A DNA stretch of 64,000 bases, taken from NCBI GenBank assembly GCA_963823925.1, contig CAWGNI010000010.1, forward strand, positions 279,424-343,423, read 5' to 3'. The notes beneath the pieces were generated by a model, which ran no database searches, was not told where the DNA came from, and saw only the letters and a list, made by a program, of their open reading frames with translations. This stretch comes from an uncultured Chloroflexia bacterium. Its GTDB lineage: Bacteria; Chloroflexota; Limnocylindria; Limnocylindrales; CSP1-4. Position numbers and translations under genes: made by a program. Shown piece by piece: positions 1-9,654 of this stretch (position 1 is its first letter; every line of letters starts with the position of its first letter).

Positions 1-2
1 AC

Positions 3-113
3 GGGCCGGTCCTGCGCGAGGCCGGCTACACGACCGACCTTCCCGACGAAGCACTCCTCGTCCCGGCAGGACCGACCGATCCGGAGCTCGATCCGGTCGA
101 GGTCGCCCGCTAG
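3..113 (+). CDS. 3' end of an upstream gene, probably Fe-S assembly ATPase SufC (partial)
   Basis: Open frame GPVLREAGY...EVAR ends in TAG at 111-113 directly before sufS. The LxExGY-like tail and the context suggest SufC. Confidence 0.45.
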   Translation, partial: GPVLREAGYTTDLPDEALLVPAGPTDPELDPVEVAR

Positions 114-129
114 GCGGGCAACAGGACCC

Positions 130-1387
130 ATGGCCATCGCCCCGGATCCCGTCGGCACCCTCGACCCACAGGTCGTCAAGGCCGATTTCCCGATCCTCCG
201 GCAGGAGATCAACGGGCACCCGCTCGTCTTCCTCGATTCGGCGTCGACGAGCCAGAAGCCCGCGGTGGTCATCGACGCGGTGACGACCTACTACGAGGAG
301 TACAACGCCAACGTCCATCGGGGCATCTACACGATCGGCGAGCAGGCGACCGCGGCCTACGAGAACGCCCGCGCGCGCATCGCCCGGTTCATCGGTGCGC
401 CGGACACCGGCGAAGTCATCTTCACCCGCAACGCGACCGAGGCGATCAATCTCGTCGCCTACGCCTGGGGTCGGCGCAACATCGACCGTGGCGACGCCAT
501 CGTCCTGACCGAGATGGAACACCACGCCAACCTCGTCCCGTGGCAGGTGCTCGTCCAGGAGCGCGACGGCGACCTGGAATTCATCCCGATCACCGATGAC
601 GGGATCCTCCGGCTGGATGTCCTGGAAGTCCTCCTGCGTCTCAAGCCGAAGCTGGTCGCCTTCACCCACGTCTCGAACACCCTTGGCACGATCAATCCCG
701 TCCGCGAGATGATCGAGATGGCCCACGCGGCCGGCGCGCTCGTCCTGGTCGACGGGGCCCAGGCGGTCCCGCACATGCCCGTCGACGTCCAGGCGCTCGG
801 CGCTGACTTCTACGCATTCTCCGGGCACAAGATGCTCGGCCCCATGGGTTCGGGCGTGCTCTGGGCGCGACGAGAGCTGCTCGAGGCGATGCCGCCGTTC
901 CTGACCGGCGGCGAGATGATCCGGGAGGTCCACCTTCGCCGGAGCGAGTTCAACGAGATCCCCTGGAAGTTCGAGGCGGGGACGCCAGCGGTCGGCGACG
1001 CGATCGGGCTCGGTGTGGCCGCAGACTATCTGATCGGGTCTTGGGATGGCAGCGGTGCGGGCGCACGAGCGCGACCTCGTCGCCTACGCGCTGGAGGCAT
1101 TGCCTCGCGATGTTCCCGGCATCGAGCTGTACGGCCCGCTCGACCCCGACCTGCGCGGCGGTGTCGTCCCGTTCAATCTGCCGGGGATCCATCCGCACGA
1201 CGTCGCCCAGGTCCTCGATCGATCCGGCATCGCGGTCCGGGCCGGTCATCACTGCACGATGCCGCTCCACGAACGGCTCGACCTTGCCGCGACGGCCCGG
1301 GCGAGCTTCAGCGTCTACTCGACGCGCGACGACATCGACGCCCTTGCGTCCGGTCTCAGGGAAGTCCAGCGCGTCTTCAACGGCTGA
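130..1387 (+). CDS. sufS: SufS-family cysteine desulfurase (one frameshift near 1037)
   Basis: Motifs FLDSASTSQKP, ANVHRG, MEHHAN, DGAQ, FSGHKM (PLP Lys) and EAGTP lie in ORF 130..1410. The C-terminus with VRAGHHC (catalytic Cys) and RASF is in ORF 1046..1387. Removing one G of the GGG at 1036-1038 restores the frame. Confidence 0.95.
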
Positions 1388-1462
1388 CGCCGAGGTTCAG
1401 GAAGCGCTGACGTGCAGGAACACTGACGCGTAGGTGGAAGCGCTGACGCGAAGGTGGAAGGT
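1384..1462 (+). repeat. Imperfect short tandem repeats (four CTGACG cores; two ~20-nt units)
   Basis: CTGACG occurs at 1384, 1407, 1423 and 1443. Units CTGACGCGTAGGTGGAAGCG (1423-1442) and CTGACGCGAAGGTGGAAGGT (1443-1462) are near-identical. Confidence 0.7.
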
Positions 1463-1475
1463 GCGGGTTCTGGCT

Positions 1476-1802
1476 CTAGCCGGTCGCCCGTGCGGTGCGC
1501 TGGCGGGCCGCACCCGTGGTTCGCTTCGTGCGACTGTCCCGGTGAACGACGAGCGAGGCCTTGCCATCGTTGGTCGCGACATCGATCGTGGCGTCGGACA
1601 GGAGGTCCGCGGCGCTGGCAGCCACGAGCGTCGAGAGCCGGCCGTCATCGACGACGCGGTCGCTGGCGATCGGCTTCCGGACGAACGTCAGCACCAATCG
1701 ACCGGCACGCCGGATGAACCTCGGGACCGAATCAGTCCCCAGACCCTTCTCGCGTCGGACTCGGACCAGGTGATCCCTGGCTTGTGGCGTGAATCGAAGC
1801 AT
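1476..1802 (-). CDS. Small cysteine-less HesB/IscA-like protein (108 aa)
   Basis: MLRFTPQARDHL... starts at ATG 1802 with a GGAGG Shine-Dalgarno upstream. The N-terminus and overall pattern resemble the HesB fold, but there are no Cys residues. Confidence 0.55.
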   Translation of the reverse strand: MLRFTPQARDHLVRVRREKGLGTDSVPRFIRRAGRLVLTFVRKPIASDRVVDDGRLSTLVAASAADLLSDATIDVATNDGKASLVVHRDSRTKRTTGAARQRTARATG

Positions 1803-1822
1803 CGGCAAACCTCCAACTGTCA

Positions 1823-1847
1823 CTATATAGTAGCCTACTGGCAAGTA
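1823..1847. promoter_or_regulatory. AT-rich divergent promoter region with overlapping inverted repeats (candidate MarR operator)
   Basis: CTATATAG (1823-1830), AGTAG-C-CTACT (1829-1839) and TACT-GGCA-AGTA (1836-1847) lie between the divergent HesB-like and MarR genes. Confidence 0.5.
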
Positions 1848-1890
1848 TTTGACCAGCCCCAACGTTCTGGCAGCCAAGAGGAACCTTCGC

Positions 1891-2356
1891 GTGATCGATC
1901 CGGAACTCCTGGACGTCATCGAGCGGATCGTCGTTGCCGGCGTGGCGATGACCAACGAATCGCTCGGAAGGTCGCGACCGAACCTCGAGCTCACGCTCCA
2001 GCAATGGCGGGTCATGGTCGTCCTCGGCGACGCTCCGGAGGGCCATCCCGTCGGTGAGATCTCGCAACTCATCGCAGTGACCCTGCCGGCCACCGGCCGC
2101 CAGCTCCGCCGGCTCGAGCAGCGCGGCCTGGTGACGCTCGCGCGGGACCCACACGATCGTCGCGTGACACGAGTGCGTCTGACCGAGGCCGGGATCTCCG
2201 CGCGCGAGTCGATCGTCGCTGATCGTCGGGCGATCATCGGCGAGGCCATGCGCGACATCCGGGGCCGGGGCGACCTCATCAGGCAGCTCGAACGTGATCG
2301 CGTTCGCGCTCGAGGCCGAGGACGGCAATCCCGAGACCCCGGCGAGCGGGGATTAA
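1891..2356 (+). CDS. MarR-family transcriptional regulator (probable frameshift near 2293)
   Basis: LTLQQWRVMVVL...VGEISQLIAVTLPATGRQLRRLEQRGLVTLARDPHDRRVTRVRLTEAG is a classic MarR wHTH. GTG 1891 follows an AGAGGA SD. The uncorrected ORF ends at 2394; a shifted frame ends at TAA 2356. Confidence 0.88.
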
Positions 2357-2405
2357 TCCCGACCTCGCTGGTCGGGATTGGACAATCGCGCTAGACTTCA
2401 GGCTG

Positions 2406-2804
2406 ATGGACGACCTGTACCGCGACTACATCCTCGAGCACTATCGGCGGCCCCACAACTTCGGGGTCATCGAGGATCCCGACGCGTCCTACGAAGGCGC
2501 GAATCCGTTGTGCGGCGACCGGATCACGCTGATGCTCGGGGTGAAGGACGGGGTGGTCGATCGGGTCGCGTTCACCGGCCGCGGTTGTGCGATCAGCCAG
2601 GCCAGTGCGAGCCTCCTGACGGACGAGATCAGCGGCAAGTCGATCGAGGAAGTCGCGGCCATCCGGGCGGACGATCTCCTGGACCTGCTCGGCATCGACA
2701 TCAGCCCGGCGCGTCTCAAGTGCGCCATGCTCAGCCACGACGCGCTCCAGCATGTTCTCGAGGACGTTGGCGCCACGGTTGCGCCGGCCGACGCGAACCG
2801 ATGA
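2406..2804 (+). CDS. sufU: SufU/NifU-like Fe-S assembly sulfur-transfer protein
   Basis: LYRDYILEHYRRPHNFG, NPLCGD, GRGCAISQASAS and ARLKCA carry the three conserved Cys. Confidence 0.93.
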   Translation: MDDLYRDYILEHYRRPHNFGVIEDPDASYEGANPLCGDRITLMLGVKDGVVDRVAFTGRGCAISQASASLLTDEISGKSIEEVAAIRADDLLDLLGIDISPARLKCAMLSHDALQHVLEDVGATVAPADANR

Positions 2805-2854
2805 CCCACCCGAGCCGGATCGAGCGCCGCTGCAGGTGTCGTCAGCCGGTCTGA
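2801..2854 (+). CDS. Candidate 17-aa leader peptide MTHPSRIERRCRCRQPV
   Basis: The ATG overlaps the sufU stop (ATGA), the peptide has a CRC motif, and it lies upstream of the cysteine-synthesis operon. It is not called separately in the ORF track. Confidence 0.35.
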   Translation: MTHPSRIERRCRCRQPV

Positions 2855-2898
2855 GTACCGGCCCGACATCCAGCCCCTTCCCACTGCCGAACCAATCC

Positions 2899-2930
2899 AT
2901 GAGGACGCATCCTGGGGGGAGCGTCCTCAT
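2899..2930 (+). terminator. Strong hairpin upstream of moeZ (terminator or attenuator candidate)
   Basis: Perfect 10-bp arms ATGAGGACGC (2899-2908) and GCGTCCTCAT (2921-2930), plus inner TCC/GGA pairing. There is no U-tract. Confidence 0.5.
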
Positions 2931-2983
2931 CGCCCTGGTGCCACCCGCATCAGCCCGTCGACCATCGGAGTCCACCAAGCCAC

Positions 2984-4138
2984 ATGCCGAAGTCCTACGC
3001 CGACCTCCTTCGTGAGGCCCGCGCCCAGATCAGGGAAGTCAGCCCGCAGGAGGTCGACGCCTTGCCGGTGGGCGGCGCGGCGATCATCGACGTCCGTGAG
3101 ACGTCCGAATGGGAGCAGGGCCACCTGCCCGGCGCTCGCCACATCTCGAAGTCATACATCGAACAGGAGATCGAGGGGGTCGTCCCGGACCGCGACGCAC
3201 CGGTGATCCTGTACTGTGCCGGCGGCATCCGTTCGTTGTTCGCTGCCCAGACGATGCGAGAGATGGGCTATACGGATGTCGCCTCGATGTCCGGCGGGTT
3301 CCAGTCCTGGAAGGGAGCCGGTCTCGACTTCGAGACGCCGGTCGTCCTGACCGCGGAGCAGAAGCAGCGGTACAGCCGGCATCTCCTGATCCCCGAGGTG
3401 GGAGCGGCCGGCCAGGCCAGGCTCCTCGAGTCGAAGGCACTGCTCATCGGGGCCGGCGGCCTTGGTTCCCCAGCGTCGCTCTATCTGGCCGCGGCCGGCG
3501 TCGGGACGATCGGCATCGTCGACTTCGACATCGTCGATATCAGCAACCTCCAGCGCCAGATCGTCCACACCACCGATCGGGTGGGGGAGCGCAAGGTCGA
3601 GTCAGCGAAGAAGTCGATCAACGCGTTGAACCCGGACGTCAACGTGGTCGCCCACGAGGAGATGCTGGTCGCCGGGAACGTCGATCGGATCATCGCCGGG
3701 TACGACGTCATCCTCGACGGGACGGATACCTTCGAGACCCGCTACACGCTCAACGACGCCGCCGTGGCAGCCGGGATCCCGGTCATCCACGCCAGCGTCT
3801 TCCGGTTCGAGGGCCAGCTCACGACCTTCATCCCGTATGAAGGGCCGTGCTACCGCTGCCTGTATCCGACCCCGCCGCCGCCGGAGCTCGCGCCCGGTTG
3901 TTCGGTCGCCGGTGTCCTGGGCGTCGTGCCGGGCATCCTCGGCCTGCTCCAGGCGACCGAGGCCCTCAAGGTCCTGCTCGGGATCGGCCAGACCCTCGCC
4001 GGTCGGCTGCTCCTGTTCGATGCCCTCGAGACGGAGTTCACCGAGCTCCGACTGCGCCGCGACCCGGCCTGCCCGGTCTGCTCCGACGCGGCCGTCAAGG
4101 CCCGCGCCGAGGGCCGGCCCCTGGCGATCCCGGCATGA
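2984..4138 (+). CDS. moeB: MoeB/MoeZ-like adenylyltransferase with N-terminal rhodanese domain
   Basis: Rhodanese DVRE...GHLPGA...YCAGGIRS is followed by ThiF motifs RYSRHLLIPEVG, IGAGGLGSP, SNLQRQ and the Zn motifs CYRC and CPVC. Confidence 0.93.
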   Translation: MPKSYADLLREARAQIREVSPQEVDALPVGGAAIIDVRETSEWEQGHLPGARHISKSYIEQEIEGVVPDRDAPVILYCAGGIRSLFAAQTMREMGYTDVASMSGGFQSWKGAGLDFETPVVLTAEQKQRYSRHLLIPEVGAAGQARLLESKALLIGAGGLGSPASLYLAAAGVGTIGIVDFDIVDISNLQRQIVHTTDRVGERKVESAKKSINALNPDVNVVAHEEMLVAGNVDRIIAGYDVILDGTDTFETRYTLNDAAVAAGIPVIHASVFRFEGQLTTFIPYEGPCYRCLYPTPPPPELAPGCSVAGVLGVVPGILGLLQATEALKVLLGIGQTLAGRLLLFDALETEFTELRLRRDPACPVCSDAAVKARAEGRPLAIPA

Positions 4139-4407
4139 GCACCGTCTACATCCCGTCGGTGTTGCGCGCGAATGTGGGCGGCGTGAAGTCGCTCCAGCTC
4201 GACGGCGACTCGATCCGGGCAGTCGTCACTGCGCTGGTCGCCGAGCACCCCTCGCTCGAGTCGCAGCTCCTGACCGACGACGGCGACCTGAACCGGTTCG
4301 TCAACGTCTACGTCAACGGCCAGGACGTCCGCTATCTGGCCGGTCTCGAGACGCCGGTCGCGCCGGCCGATGAGGTTCGCCTCCTGCCGGCGATGGCCGG
4401 CGGCTGA
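4135..4407 (+). CDS. Ubiquitin-like sulfur carrier (CysO/MoaD/ThiS family)
   Basis: 90 aa with FVNVYVNGQDVRYL and a C-terminal AMAGG di-glycine, lying between moeZ and cysM. Confidence 0.92.
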   Translation: MSTVYIPSVLRANVGGVKSLQLDGDSIRAVVTALVAEHPSLESQLLTDDGDLNRFVNVYVNGQDVRYLAGLETPVAPADEVRLLPAMAGG

Positions 4408-4410
4408 CCG

Positions 4411-5424
4411 ATGGCCGTCCTCCGGCGGCTCGATGACGCCGACCACGAACACGCGCACGCGCACGAGGCGGTCGCCCCGCATGGCGGACGCTACGACGAC
4501 ATCCTCCAGGCGATCGGCCACACCCCGCTCGTCGAGATCCCCCGGATGTCGCCGAACCCGGCGGTCCGGATCTTCGCCAAGCTGGAGATGCTCAACCCGA
4601 CCGGTTCGGTCAAGGACCGGGTCGCCCGATACCTGATCGAGGATCTCGAGCGGCGCGGTCTGCTCCACGACAATTCGATCATCCTGGAACCGACCTCCGG
4701 GAACACCGGGATCGCCCTGGCGATGATCGGCCGGCGGAAGGGCTATCGCGTCGCCCTGGTCATGCCCGACAACGTGACCAACGAGCGCCGTCAGATGGCC
4801 GCCCTGTTCGGCGCCGAGGTCATCGATTCGCCCGGCGCGCAGGGCTCGAACGGGGCGATCGCCCTGGCCAAGCACCTCGTCAGCAAGGACGCGCGGTTCG
4901 TCATGCCCTACCAGTACGGCAATCCCGCGAACCCGCAGGCGCACTACGAGACGACCGGGCCGGAGATCCTGGCCGACTGCCCGGAGATCGACGTCTTCGT
5001 CGCCGGCCTCGGGACCGGCGGCACGCTGATGGGCGTTTCGCGCTACCTGCGCGAGCATCGGCCGGGTGTCCGGATCGTGGCCGTCGAGCCGCTCCCCGGG
5101 GAGCTGGTCCAGGGCCTGCGCTCGCTCGACGAGGGGTTCATCCCCGAGATCCTCGATCCGTCGCTGATCGATGCGAAGTACCTCGTCTCGAACCGCGACG
5201 CCATCACGGCGCTGCGCGACCTCGTCTTCCGCGAGGGGATCTTCGCCGGTCCGTCATGTGGCGCCGTCCTCGTGGCCGCGGCCAGGGTCGCGTCGGAGAT
5301 GACCGGCGGCACGATCGTCGCCCTTCTCCCGGACGGTGGCTGGAAGTACCTGTCGGCGGGGACGTTCTCGAGCGACCTCGATGACATGGAAGAAGCGCTC
5401 GAGGGTGGCGTCAACTGGTGGTGA
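4411..5424 (+). CDS. cysM: PLP-dependent cysteine synthase (CysM type)
   Basis: IGHTPLVEI, AKLEMLNPTGSVKDR (PLP Lys), EPTSGNTGIALA, GLGTGGT and KYLS; adjacent to the CysO-like and Mec-like genes. Confidence 0.9.
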   Translation: MAVLRRLDDADHEHAHAHEAVAPHGGRYDDILQAIGHTPLVEIPRMSPNPAVRIFAKLEMLNPTGSVKDRVARYLIEDLERRGLLHDNSIILEPTSGNTGIALAMIGRRKGYRVALVMPDNVTNERRQMAALFGAEVIDSPGAQGSNGAIALAKHLVSKDARFVMPYQYGNPANPQAHYETTGPEILADCPEIDVFVAGLGTGGTLMGVSRYLREHRPGVRIVAVEPLPGELVQGLRSLDEGFIPEILDPSLIDAKYLVSNRDAITALRDLVFREGIFAGPSCGAVLVAAARVASEMTGGTIVALLPDGGWKYLSAGTFSSDLDDMEEALEGGVNWW

Positions 5425-5873
5425 CGCCGCATCCGGGGCCGACCTCCGTCGAGTTGCCCGCCCGGATCCGGGAGGCGATCGTCGCCCAGGCACGTGCCGA
5501 ATACCCCGACGAAGCGTGCGGGCTGATCATCGGTGACCGTGCGGCCGCCGTCGGCGGCGTCGCCCTTCGCTACGTGCCCACCCGGAACGAGGCGGCGTCC
5601 CCGTCGCGGTACCGGATCCATCCGGACGACCTCCTCCGTCTGACCATCGAGACCGATGACGCCGACGAGGCCTTCTGGGGGATCGTCCATTCACACACCC
5701 ACACACCAGCCCGTCCGTCGCCGACCGACATCGGCCTGGCCATCCTGTATCGCGAGCCGCTCTACTTGCTCGTCTCGTTGAGCGACGACGAGGCCGACCC
5801 GACGACCGGCGGCCCGAGTCTCCGGGCCTGGCGGATCCTTGACGGGGAGGTCTACGAGGTGGCACTGCGGTGA
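5418..5873 (+). CDS. M67/JAB (Mec-like) metallopeptidase
   Basis: YPDEACGLI and the JAMM motif HSHTHTPARPSPTD. Confidence 0.9.
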   Translation: MVTPHPGPTSVELPARIREAIVAQARAEYPDEACGLIIGDRAAAVGGVALRYVPTRNEAASPSRYRIHPDDLLRLTIETDDADEAFWGIVHSHTHTPARPSPTDIGLAILYREPLYLLVSLSDDEADPTTGGPSLRAWRILDGEVYEVALR

Positions 5874-5880
5874 TCGCCCG

Positions 5881-6288
5881 ATGACCCGACGGCAGGGGAT
5901 GCTCGGCACGCTCGCTGCCTTGGTGGCCGGCGGCGTCGCGATCCTGGCCGTGACCCTGCTCGGCTCCAGCCCAGGCCTCCTCGATGCCGTCGTCCACCCG
6001 CCGGACATCGTCCGGGCGGCACTCGTCGGCGGCTCCGTGACGCTCGCCGTCGTGCTGCTGACCCGTGGCCTTGGACGACTGGCCGCCGGCACCGATGACG
6101 TCCCTGGTCTCGTGCGCGGCGTCCGGCTGGTCTTCCTGGCCCTCGCCGCCGCGGCCGCGGCCGCGGGATGGCTGTTCGGCGTGGCGCTGCCACTGGTGGT
6201 CGCCGTCATCATCGGCGGGATCGACGTCGTCGAGACGTCCTTCCTGCTGCTCGTCGTTGCAGCAGGTCCGATCAGCCGAACGGACTGA
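5881..6288 (+). CDS. Hypothetical membrane protein (~4 TM)
   Basis: ATG 5881 opens a frame with several long hydrophobic segments and GC3-rich codons. Confidence 0.65.
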   Translation: MTRRQGMLGTLAALVAGGVAILAVTLLGSSPGLLDAVVHPPDIVRAALVGGSVTLAVVLLTRGLGRLAAGTDDVPGLVRGVRLVFLALAAAAAAAGWLFGVALPLVVAVIIGGIDVVETSFLLLVVAAGPISRTD

Positions 6289-7163
6289 TCGTTTCCCGTT
6301 CGCGGGTCGTGTCGTGGACCGGGGCCGTGACCCCGATCCCGCCTCGGACGACGAGGACGGAGCAGGGAGCGTTCAGCAGGACGTTGCGGGCGACACTGCC
6401 GACCATCAGCCGGCGCAGGCCCGGTCTGTCCTCGGGTCCCCATGACGATCAGGTTGGTCCGATGAGCGGTCGCTGCCGCGACGATCTCGCGGGCCGGATT
6501 GCCCTGTCGCGGCTCGGCGGTAGCCTCCAGGCCGGCTTCCCGCAGACGGCCGGCGACGGCTTCGCACTCTGCCGTGACCGACTCCGCCGGTGCACCCGAC
6601 TCGGCCACGCTGAGCACGGTGATCGGCAGGCCGGAGAAGAGCGGCCAGTCCATGAGCATGGACTCGGCCGACCGGGCGTGGAGGGACCGGTCGTCGGCAA
6701 GGATCAGTGGTCCGAGGTTCTCGTCGCGCGCCACCAGGACCGGGCATGGCGCCTGGTCCACGACCTCCGCGGAGACGGATCCGAGGAGCATCGTCTCCCA
6801 GCGCCCGGCACCCCGGTGGCCGACGACGATGAGGTCGGCCGGCATCTTGCGGGCCTCGTCCACGATCATGCTGGCGGCGCGGCCGTGGAGCAGGGTGGAT
6901 TCGATCGCCAGGTCGGACCGGGCGGATCGGATCTCGTGCTCGGCGCGCCGGATCGCATCCCGGTGGATCCTGACGATACCCGGCTCGGCGCCGGCGACGG
7001 CTGGGGTGGCGGCCATCGACCACGGCCCGCCGACGACTTCGGCATGGATCGGGATGACGCTGACGATCTGGACCCGGTCGCCTGCCCGCCACGGGAGCGC
7101 GGCGACCAGATCACGCGCACGATCGGCAGCGAATGAACCATCGATCGCGAGCAGGATGCGCAC
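6272..7163 (-). CDS. Tandem-domain universal stress protein (frameshift near 6421)
   Basis: MRILLAIDGS...DLIVVGHRGAGRWETMLLGSVSAEVVDQAPCPVLV, then a second domain LIVMGTRGQTG|LRRLMVGSVARNVLLNAPCSVLVV after correction. AAGGAGG SD. Confidence 0.9.
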
Positions 7164-7183
7164 CGGAAGACCCTCCTTGGGGT

Positions 7184-8080
7184 TTACAGCGTGCACCGGG
7201 CAGCGAACCGCGGGGACGTGCCCGATGGCCTGAATCGCCATGCCCTGTGGACGTCTCCAGGGCCGATCAGCCCCCTCGGGTCTCGAGTCGCCCCGATCAG
7301 CGACGAGGCTCTCGGCGTCGAGCCGAGGCCGAGTCGCGCCCCGATCCGGGCCGCCATGGTCGGTTCGAGGTAGGTCGACGCCAGGGTCGGCCAGGAGGAC
7401 TCGGCGAAGACGTCGTCCGGCGACCCGTCGAGCAGGATCGTGCCGCCGCCCATGACGACCACCCGATCGAACGTCTCGGCGACGAACCGCATGTCGTGGC
7501 TGATCGCGATGACCGTCCGACCGGCCGCGAGCAGGTCTTCGATGACGCGCTCCACGCGGGCGACGCCACGAGCGTCCTGTCCGGTGGTGGGTTCGTCCAG
7601 CACGACGACCGAGGTCGTCATGGCGAGGATCGACGCCAGTGTCAGCAGTTTCCGGCGCGAGTAGCCCAGGTCGTAGGGGTTGGTGTCACCCAGCTCGGTC
7701 AGGCCGACCGCAGCCAGGGCCGCATCGGTGGCCGTCGCGATCTCGGTGGCCGTCCGGCCGAGGATCCTTGGGCCGAACGCCACTTCCGCGCGGACCTTGC
7801 CGGCGAAGATCTGCCGGTCCGGGTTCTGGAAGACGATGCCGATCCGGGCGGCCAGCGCCGCGACCCGGCTGCTGGCGATGTCTTCGCCGTCGAGGAGGAT
7901 CCGGCCCTCGGTCGGGCGCAACAGGCCGTTGAGGTGGCGGGCCAGGGTGGACTTGCCGCTGCCGTTCTGGCCGACGATCGCGATCCCCTCGCCCGGCCCG
8001 ATGGCCAGATCGACGGCCGATAGTGCCCGGGTCCCGTCCGGGTAGACGAACCCGATTCCTTCGAGCTTGATCGCGGTCAC
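7184..8080 (-). CDS. ECF transporter ATPase (second A component)
   Basis: Walker A GQNGSGKST, FQNPDRQIF and Walker B VVVLDEPTTGQD. The true stop may be earlier, near 7270. Confidence 0.9.
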   Translation of the reverse strand: MTAIKLEGIGFVYPDGTRALSAVDLAIGPGEGIAIVGQNGSGKSTLARHLNGLLRPTEGRILLDGEDIASSRVAALAARIGIVFQNPDRQIFAGKVRAEVAFGPRILGRTATEIATATDAALAAVGLTELGDTNPYDLGYSRRKLLTLASILAMTTSVVVLDEPTTGQDARGVARVERVIEDLLAAGRTVIAISHDMRFVAETFDRVVVMGGGTILLDGSPDDVFAESSWPTLASTYLEPTMAARIGARLGLGSTPRASSLIGATRDPRGLIGPGDVHRAWRFRPSGTSPRFAARCTL

Positions 8081-8889
8081 CTGGCGCCGCCGTCCATCGC
8101 GATGAGACCGGGATCGAGCCCGCGGCTCGTCAGCGCCCGGGCCAGCCCGATCCGCGACGGCGGCTCCACCCCCCACGCATCCAGGCGTTCATCGGCGAGG
8201 ACATCGCCGGAGGGACCGTCGAGCACGATCCGTCCGCCATCGACGACCACGACCCGGTCGCACAGGCCGTCGAGCAGGTCGGTCTTGTGCTCGACGATCA
8301 GGAGGGCCGTGCCGGTCGACGCCAGTCCACGCAGCGCCGCTCCGACCAGGCGGGTGCCCTCGGGGTCGAGCTGGGCGGTGGGTTCGTCGAGGACGAGATG
8401 CGCCGGTCGCATCGCCAGCAGCGACGCGATGACGACGAGTTGGGCCTGCCCACCGGACAGCCGGCGCGGTTCGCGCTCCGCGAGACTCGTGATGCCGAGG
8501 GTCTCGAGCGCTGCCCTTGACCGGGCGACCGTCTCGCGGGCAGGCAGGCCCAGGTTCATCGGTCCGAGTGCCACCTCCTCGAAGACCGAACCCGTCACGC
8601 CGGACAGCTGGGTCGCAGGGTTCTGGAAGCCGATCCCCACCCTCGTCGCGAAGGCATGGAGTGGCTTGCCTGCCATCGACTCCCCGTCGATCCGGAGGTC
8701 GCCCGTGAGCCCCCCACCGATCGAACCCGGGGCCAGCCCGGACGCGACGAGGCAGAGGGTCGACTTGCCCGCCTCGTTGGCACCCACGACCCCGACGATC
8801 TCGCCATCGGCCAGGGTCAGGTCGATGTCATGGAGCACCGGTCGCGCGTAGCCCGCGTACCGGTACGAAACGCGTTCGAGCTGCAGCAC
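8077..8889 (-). CDS. ECF transporter ATPase (first A component)
   Basis: GANEAGKSTLC, FQNPATQLSG, LSGGQAQ and LVLDEPTAQLDP. Confidence 0.9.
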   Translation of the reverse strand: MLQLERVSYRYAGYARPVLHDIDLTLADGEIVGVVGANEAGKSTLCLVASGLAPGSIGGGLTGDLRIDGESMAGKPLHAFATRVGIGFQNPATQLSGVTGSVFEEVALGPMNLGLPARETVARSRAALETLGITSLAEREPRRLSGGQAQLVVIASLLAMRPAHLVLDEPTAQLDPEGTRLVGAALRGLASTGTALLIVEHKTDLLDGLCDRVVVVDGGRIVLDGPSGDVLADERLDAWGVEPPSRIGLARALTSRGLDPGLIAMDGGAR

Positions 8890-8897
8890 GTCGTGGC

Positions 8898-9654
8898 CTA
8901 CCCGAGTGCGCTGACGCGGATCGCGACGAGTCCCACCAGGGCCGCGACGAGGGCCCACCGGAGTCCTCGCTCCCAGCCGGTATCGGGCATCGTCCAGAGC
9001 AGATCGCGCTTCCCGGGCCGGCTGAACGCCCGGGTCTCCAGCGCCAGGCTCCGTTCCTCGACATCGGTCAGCGAGGTCAGGATGACCGGCACGACCATCG
9101 GCAGGAGGCCCCGGATCCGGGCCACGACACCGCCCTCGGTATCCATCCCGCGAGCTCGCTGGCTCTCACCGATGACCGCCGCTCGTTCGACCAGGGTGGG
9201 GACCGCCTCGATCGTCGCGACGGCCACGAATGCCGCCCGCGGAGAGACGCCGCGCCGCTCCAGGTCGAGGACGAACGCGTGCGGATCGGTGGTCAGGATG
9301 AACAACCCGATCGAGGTCGAGATGGCGAACAGGCGGACGACCGTCTGGACCGCGAAGTCCACGCCCTCGACGGTCGCGTCGAACGGTCCGATCTGGAAGA
9401 TGACCGTCGTTCCCGCCCGGGTGAAGACGCTGACGAGGACCACCGAGACCGCGATCGGCAGGGTCAGCAGGAAGGATGCGCGGACGAGGCGGCGACCGAC
9501 CCCCGCCAGCCCGGCCAGTCCCGAGCATGATCCCGATGATCACGGCCGGCCCGAGGTAGCCGCCGAGCACGAACGCCCCGACCGATGCGACGGTCGCGGC
9601 GATCGCCTTGGTCAGTGGGTTCAGCCGGTGATACGGACTCGGCGTGGCCGGCAC
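8898..9654 (-). CDS. ECF transporter transmembrane T component (frameshift near 9521)
   Basis: N-terminal YHRLNPLTK; C-terminal IGESQRARG and SLALETRAF (the two X-Arg-X motifs of EcfT). Confidence 0.88.

Follow-up and report, generated by a model that had tools for sequence, protein, structure and literature searches.

A conserved two-cysteine leader-type ORF between sufU and the CysO-dependent cysteine-synthesis genes of Limnocylindria, a candidate Cys-tRNA sensor inside an operon

Leader peptides that couple amino-acid supply to gene expression are best known from the classical attenuators trpL, hisL, leuL and pheL, and the tnaC-tnaAB system is a case of uORF-linked Rho-dependent attenuation. 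For cysteine, leader-peptide control has to our knowledge been shown experimentally only in mycobacteria. There, polycysteine leaderless short ORFs (sORFs; Ms5788A, Rv2334A and others) serve as cysteine-responsive attenuators (Canestrari et al., bioRxiv 10.1101/834739, published in Mol Microbiol 2020), with at least two consecutive Cys codons as the criterion (10.1101/834739). The initial annotation of the locus described here named Cys-rich leader peptides that regulate mycobacterial sulfur genes as a precedent, and that precedent exists (10.1101/834739). Conditional Rho terminators with translated uORFs have additionally been described in M. tuberculosis (bioRxiv 10.1101/2022.06.01.494293).

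Here we analyze a candidate leader-peptide sORF between sufU and moeZ in a window (the whole 64 kb stretch of DNA under study) from the class Limnocylindria. The MoeZ-CysO-CysM-Mec genes that had been read from the letters downstream of the sORF are matched by NCBIfam and Pfam assignments (Table 1), and moeZ-cysO-cysM-mec is a cysteine-producing operon. Upstream of sufU lie a SufS-like gene, an ORF without assignment and a MarR-like gene, and a sigma-70-like promoter match ahead of the MarR-like gene (1802-1831) is the sole such match in 9 kb. Within positions 1-9000, a scan with Rfam covariance models returned no relevant match at E <= 10, and the number of terminator-like sites was 0. The genome carries a rho gene (610 bits, above cut-off).

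Table 1 Positions of genes and RNA elements around the sufU-moeZ junction, with the related sORF loci of family f4
Feature	Positions	Strand	Basis or detail
sufU, Fe-S assembly sulfur-transfer/scaffold protein	2406-2804	+	NCBIfam TIGR01994 SufU, 112.7 bits, above cut-off
Candidate leader-peptide sORF, MTHPSRIERRCRCRQPV followed by a stop	2801-2854	+	Translation; in-frame conservation in relatives
H1, stop-codon hairpin	2841-2867	+	5' arm GCCGGT 2845-2850, 3' arm ACCGGC 2857-2862
C-rich, G-poor spacer of rut-like composition	2863-2898	+	Includes CCCCTTCCC at 2875-2883
H2, perfect 10-bp hairpin	2899-2930	+	Arms ATGAGGACGC 2899-2908 and GCGTCCTCAT 2921-2930
H3, conserved hairpin CG-CC-CTGGTGC-loop-GCATCAG-CC-CG	2931-2957	+	Covariation, invariant flanks
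Single-stranded tail CCCGTCGAnCAyCGGAG, then variable C-rich stretch; moeZ initiation region	2954-2983	+	Alignment; GGAG 2967-2970
moeZ, rhodanese-MoeB/MoeZ	2984-4138	+	NCBIfam and Pfam matches
cysO, ThiS/CysO-like	about 4135-4407	+	NCBIfam and Pfam matches
cysM	4411-5424	+	NCBIfam and Pfam matches
mec, JAB/Mec	5418-5873	+	NCBIfam and Pfam matches
Second sORF type, family f4 (loci L215, L216, L219, L228, L231, L234, L236)	sufU-moeZ interval		

The region upstream of sufU has features of its own. Between sufS and sufU we found the unassigned ORF, of 207 aa (1434-2057), together with the MarR-like gene, which is MarR/OhrR-like (within 1849-2394). SufS models align to the SufS-like ORF (426 aa, 130-1410) only as far as residue 301, and because neither its last 125 residues nor an alternative-frame ORF at 1041-1433 match anything, the tail of this ORF suggests either a frameshift or a divergent C-terminus.

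The sORF is unannotated and comprises 17 sense codons, or an 18-codon frame when its TGA stop (2852-2854) is included. Its ATG at 2801 overlaps the end of sufU (...CGA TGA, with the TGA stop at 2802-2804) as ATGA, and its two Cys codons, TGC at 2831-2833 and TGT at 2837-2839, flank an AGG codon (2834-2836) to encode Cys-Arg-Cys, so that every part of the initial description of this ORF is borne out. For comparison, Cys accounts for 0.9% of codons in the host genome, TGT for 22% of Cys codons and AGG for 11% of Arg codons. The window copy has no clear SD-like element of its own and may rely on translational coupling to sufU. Viewed in a single sequence, the sORF is not beyond chance, because ATGA overlaps and short out-of-frame ORFs are common and the 201-nt leader of the window folds no better than its shuffles (z = -0.93); across genomes, as judged by comparative analysis, it is overwhelmingly beyond chance.

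This comparison draws on three samples. A MoeZ protein search of 24 genomes from the same genus yielded 21 loci containing the sufU-moeZ junction, and the sORF is present in all 21 of them, which were located via MoeZ alone. A DNA-pattern scan, run on one genome per species, added about 60 further loci, nearly all in the order sufU-sORF-moeZ; this pattern fixes the core sequence in advance, and we therefore also drew an unbiased class-wide sample, taking 60 upstream regions from the MoeZ matches in 300 class genomes. Within family f1, to which the window belongs, 36 sampled loci have sufU upstream, and these divide into 23 with a C-x-C sORF (spanning about 19 genera), 2 with a degenerate version and 11 with none. 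A short Cys-containing ORF conserved in relatives, which the initial annotation had recommended looking for, is thus found at 21/21 genus loci and 23/36 f1 loci. In 4 further sampled f1 loci a 1-Cys-peroxiredoxin-like gene replaces sufU upstream of moeZ. The same sample showed the sORF to be absent from families f2 (streamlined) and f3, and family f4 of the same class to carry a second sORF type at the same position.

Features expected of a translated ORF recur throughout the f1 type, for which all counts refer to 91 distinct leaders. In 81/91 leaders the sORF start and the sufU stop share [A/G]TGA, in 8 more the start abuts the stop or lies within 5 nt of it, and an SD-like 4-mer is found 7-10 nt upstream of the start in 69/91, vs. 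4/91 for a control window placed 60 nt upstream. The encoded peptides range from 10 to 66 residues and, up to the first Cys, come in 22 different lengths that all keep the frame; they end in Pro-Ala in 85/91 leaders, followed by a TGA (83/91) or TAG (8/91) stop.

The Cys codons themselves are fixed, with the first always TGC, the second always TGT, and exactly four codons from TGT to the stop in 88/91 leaders. Exactly two Cys are present in 82/91 leaders, and the other 9 have extra Cys, most but not all of them with adjacent Cys codons; such extra codons were gained in some lineages, as in GCCRC, CLGCCRC, RCACRCTC and RCRCC. The codon between the two Cys varies in the unbiased sample (AGG, GCC, GCG, ACG, ATG, ACC), as does the codon before them, and within the genus the nucleotide core CGCTGCAGGTGT is invariant, synonymous sites included. 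Because the neighboring codons vary while TGC...TGT stays, and because extra Cys recur, the Cys codons appear to be the selected feature of the f1 sORF. These patterns are best explained, as far as genome comparison can tell, by a genuine leader-type ORF that is translated and that separates sufU from the CysO-dependent genes of cysteine synthesis.

Individual loci depart from the common layout in several ways. At L164, L167, L170 and L187 (f1 genera g7 and g27), moeZ stands behind a gene with a 1-Cys peroxiredoxin signature (FSHPKDFTPVCTTE) and the sORF is missing, and genome G312 carries moeZ twice, at a spacing of 3 kb, once after a peroxiredoxin-signature gene and once after sufU and the sORF. 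The sORF stop is displaced past the 3' arm of hairpin H1 at L156 (g16) and L177 (g24), and falls late within an enlarged H1 loop at L180 (g21), so that in these three cases the ribosome would read further into or through H1. A single Cys is left in the sORFs of L177 and L188, which may be decaying copies. In several long-read MAGs, the loci of L064, G001, G007, G021 and G015 contain single-base indels—such as an extra base inside the L064 sORF, or a moeZ broken into two or three frames—that are probably assembly errors and not biology. In family f3, loci L191-L201 and L205-L210 share a conserved motif, GGAATTTCCGAC-N6-9-GTCGGTT(T)A(GA/TC)..., which lies about 30-70 nt ahead of the moeZ homologue, in the gap to a divergent membrane-protein gene; since this motif resembles an operator with an inverted repeat, fused to an AT-rich -10, a DNA-binding regulator seems to stand in place of the sORF in this family. 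Two other leads were discarded: mycobacterial matches to the DNA pattern are coding coincidences without an in-frame stop, and the possibility that the host genome holds the module twice came down to a lone extra pattern match (contig C8) within a long coding region, which we attribute to chance.

We hold with moderate confidence, on comparative grounds, that the sORF is translated and that, as a Cys-codon leader peptide, it senses Cys-tRNA on behalf of moeZ-cysO-cysM-mec. Ribosomes finishing sufU, or using the SD-like element found at the sufU end in most relatives, would start on the overlapping ATG and then read TGC-x-TGT at a fixed distance ahead of a GC hairpin with the stop in its loop. 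Scarcity of charged Cys-tRNA would make them dwell on the Cys codons, and this dwell would alter the expression of moeZ-cysO-cysM-mec; analogy to the leader peptides known for Cys and for other amino acids predicts an increase. Counting against such a sensor is the presence of just two Cys codons, which are not adjacent, and a pure Cys-tRNA sensor does not need the invariant order of TGC then TGT, the fixed C-x-C spacing in f1 or the conservation of CLQSTGRC in f4. A bolder reading, which we regard as unlikely, would make the element a Limnocylindria-specific intercistronic sensor, in which a two-Cys micro-ORF fed from sufU gates the CysO pathway without a terminator or antiterminator, and in which both the nascent peptide and the choice of codons matter. 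It could act, for example, by controlling the access of Rho to the C-rich leader, and if true, cysteine synthesis would be tied both to Cys-tRNA charging and to the translation of Fe-S assembly genes.

The sORF of family f4 bears on how much of the constraint lies in the peptide. It starts on the sufU stop and reads MSRSFxGRRVSCLQSTGRC plus 2-9 variable residues in five genera, so that the first 19 residues are of fixed length and the tail after Cys2 is not; its Cys codons are likewise TGC first and TGT last, with C-x6-C spacing. All 7 sequences, from 5 genera, share CLQSTGRC unchanged, although 6 of its 8 codons show synonymous changes, and pairwise codon differences number 126 synonymous vs. 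56 non-synonymous. The synonymous excess and the invariant CLQSTGRC prove selection at the level of translation and show that the peptide sequence itself is constrained in f4, by purifying selection on the amino acids. A conserved micro-protein and an arrest peptide are both possible identities for the f4 product.

These observations lend themselves to an explanation in which the sORF product or nascent chain matters in itself, either as a small thiol peptide in a SufU/MoeZ sulfur relay or as a TnaC-like arrest peptide that would sense a metabolite within the ribosome tunnel and halt the ribosome near the stop. In addition to the f4 conservation, such an explanation would fit the fixed C-x-C spacing and fixed Cys2-to-stop distance in f1, as well as the predominance of UGA stops followed by rut-like RNA in a genome with rho, a combination that corresponds to the TnaC layout. 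The f1 peptides, however, are free to vary at all residues except the two Cys and Pro-Ala, differ in N-terminal length from 3 to 59 residues and can be as short as 10 residues (MNRCRCSRPA), and even the Pro-Ala is accounted for by the RNA hairpin, as CCG GCC supplies its GCCGGC arm. The variable f4 tail of 2-9 residues after Cys2 is also ill-suited to an arrest at termination there. Overall, we consider a functional peptide unlikely as the main explanation.

Between the sORF and moeZ, the leaders combine conserved and variable RNA elements. The 5' arm of H1 is formed by the last sense codons of the sORF, its loop (CTGAGT) includes the TGA stop, and its outer pairs are GTC/GAC. Folding predicts H1 in all leaders, with energies of -11 to -20 kcal/mol. 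Of 71 distinct versions, nearly all have the arms GCCGGC/GCCGGC; the compensatory arms GCCGGT/ACCGGC are found in the window and in L007 (RNAalifold pair 104-114, CG:18 UA:2). From the sORF stop to the moeZ ATG, a distance of 67-183 nt (median 99 nt), the 91 leaders average 48% C and 27% G, and in C-minus-G the spacer copy of the window ranks at the 99.9th percentile when compared with 130-nt windows taken across the 64 kb.

Further downstream, H3 has invariant flanks (CGCCCTG...CAGCCCGTCGA) and is matched by a strict pattern in 68/87 leaders, with a covariation score of 0.217 vs. 0.109 in shuffles (0/500 shuffles as high) and a pair, 10-19, that is seen as GC, CG, AU, UA and GU. Each genome has one real copy of H3; other genomic matches to its pattern are as numerous as in the control and fail to fold, and we rejected the idea of a genome-wide motif. 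H3 is followed by an invariant CGGAG, and because GGAG lies 10-14 nt from the moeZ ATG in 83/87 leaders, exceeding the roughly 7 nt of the SD-like element of the sORF, translation initiation at moeZ looks deliberately atypical from its spacing. H3 and CGGAG are kept in two lineages that have no sORF (L160 and L173), and they therefore form a separable module that is not tied to the sORF. The conserved RNA elements of the leaders are H1, with its compensatory pair, and H3, with its covarying stem; H2, the hairpin found in about 7/91 leaders, is not one of them.

We found no support in silico for a terminator/antiterminator or an SD-sequestering switch. No U-tract follows H1, H2 or H3, each of which is followed by C/G-rich sequence. 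When the RNA covered by a ribosome standing on Cys1, on Cys2 or on the stop was masked in equilibrium folding, predicted SD accessibility did not shift systematically (0.29-0.31 in all states), and neither did the probability of H3 (median 0.93 in all states). Duplex and permutation tests revealed no excess complementarity or co-variation of the H1 3' arm with the SD or with the 5' or 3' arm of H3, and no signal between the H1 5' arm and the SD or between the region before the core and the tail.

One candidate helix did emerge from RNAalifold, which, on the genus alignment, pairs GCUGCAGGUG in the Cys core with CAYCGGAGY at the SD. This helix contains a mismatch and a bulge and exhibits one-sided changes only, its energy is no better than that of shuffles, its 4-5 bp of contiguous complement are what chance would give (median p about 0.8-0.97), and its rank among windows of its own leader is the median (0.40). 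We keep this predicted pairing as a possibility; if true, it would reproduce the SD-sequestration logic of mycobacteria and explain the frozen nucleotides.

For the favored Cys-tRNA sensor, the output step might be Rho-dependent termination in the C-rich, G-poor spacer, an option that we rate as possible if well short of likely and that is supported by the composition of the spacer, the strong rho match (610 bits) and the precedent of uORF-linked Rho termination. A slightly less probable option is that translation initiation at moeZ is controlled, for which the weak pairing of the Cys core with the SD predicted by RNAalifold is one route, and other mechanisms take up what remains.

The same tests bear on the idea that the sORF is translated without sensing anything, with ribosome carriage past sufU setting a fixed level of coupling, Rho polarity or mRNA stability between sufU and moeZ, and the Cys codons being incidental to RNA or codon constraints. 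That no switch could be demonstrated by folding, masking or duplex tests is consistent with this idea, and the invariance of CGCTGCAGGTGT within the genus, including at synonymous sites, fits a constraint at the RNA level. Across genera, however, the Cys codons stay while the surrounding nucleotides change, extra Cys have been gained repeatedly, and the f4 version retains two Cys with different spacing and sequence, all in a gene context of cysteine synthesis, which together make a non-sensing role decidedly improbable. More improbable still is that the conserved block is an untranslated RNA or DNA motif—a protein-binding site or an unknown riboswitch, with the ORF incidental—for although the core nucleotides are invariant within the genus, the frame is kept across 22 length classes, the start is linked to the stop of sufU and preceded by an SD-like signal, the f4 substitutions are of the synonymous kind, and no Rfam family matches at E <= 10.

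The perfect 10-bp hairpin reported by the initial annotation, here called H2, exists in the window, with a G-rich loop of 12 nt (ATCCTGGGGGGA), and the predicted fold lengthens its stem via pairing inside the loop. H2 is missing from 19/21 genus members, and in species outside the roughly 7/91 distinct leaders that have it, unrelated hairpins or none occupy its place; an H2-like GAGGACG...CGTCCTC hairpin occurs only in L014/L131, L070, L077, L088, L096 and L116. From this distribution, H2 is best classed as lineage-specific and outside the conserved core. Only one copy with this G-rich loop occurs in the genome, and we dropped the notion of a repeated mobile hairpin. The proposal that H2 works as an attenuator, with its loop alternatively pairing with CCCCTTCCC, is not supported and is the least credible of the explanations considered, for although both elements are in the window and similar G-rich-loop hairpins occur in about six other species, always 3' of C-runs, the hairpin is absent from most leaders, lacks a U-tract after it and, in the predicted fold, has its loop G's paired inside the loop, and a nearby C-run is uninformative because all leaders are C-rich.

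If the Cys-tRNA sensor is confirmed, it would widen the range of known designs for ribosome-mediated attenuation, offer a compact testable element of about 180 nt, and link Fe-S assembly to the supply of cysteine in a lineage of soil and fresh water that is abundant yet uncultured. It would also illustrate what annotation leaves out, as ORFs of 10-20 codons are missed.

Compared with the mycobacterial sORFs, the element described here is similarly an unannotated Cys-codon sORF of a high-GC bacterium, placed immediately ahead of genes for cysteine metabolism, similarly lacks a classical terminator, and would similarly sense cysteine by ribosome dwell at Cys codons. The mycobacterial sORFs are leaderless, whereas this one, by its sequence context, would start on the sufU stop (81/91), usually behind an SD-like 4-mer (69/91); and in place of a consecutive Cys tract it has two Cys codons one codon apart (six in f4). 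The RBS-sequestering duplex of mycobacteria has a possible counterpart here in the RNAalifold helix between Cys core and SD, whose energy is at shuffle level, with SD accessibility unaffected by ribosome masks, and the host belongs to a different phylum, Chloroflexota, class Limnocylindria.

As in trpL, hisL, leuL and pheL, the regulatory codons lie just upstream of a hairpin whose 5' arm is coding and whose arms enclose the stop, and the N-terminus varies while the C-terminal geometry is fixed (Cys2, four codons and the stop in 88/91). Unlike these attenuators, which sit at the transcript 5' end, the ORF is inside an operon, and it has no U-tract terminator and no demonstrable antiterminator. 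Mutually exclusive helices of the classical kind were not found, given that pairing of the H1 3' arm with H3 equals controls, H3 is unaffected by the masks, and the distance from stop to moeZ ranges over 67-183 nt.

With uORF-linked Rho attenuation, the locus shares a short translated ORF followed at once by C-rich, G-poor untranslated RNA, a fixed distance from the conserved residues to the stop, and a rho gene in the genome; the C-rich stretch after the ORF extends for the roughly 70 nt or more that such systems have (median 99 nt). Rho dependence would here be assigned by analogy, and no model so far predicts, for ribosomes stalled at the Cys codons, control in the direction that would be expected.

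Overall, we take the element to be a probable ribosome-based sensor of cysteine, known in kind but unusual in lying between genes. It would extend leader-peptide control of cysteine to another phylum and to a position ahead of the CysO/CysM/Mec pathway, within an operon and coupled to the sufU stop, with no recognizable hairpin switch and with constraints on codons and peptide beyond those of a simple starvation sensor. It differs from the known cases in being intercistronic and coupled to sufU, in lacking a terminator or antiterminator, in having spaced Cys with frozen codons, and in being followed by rut-like RNA.
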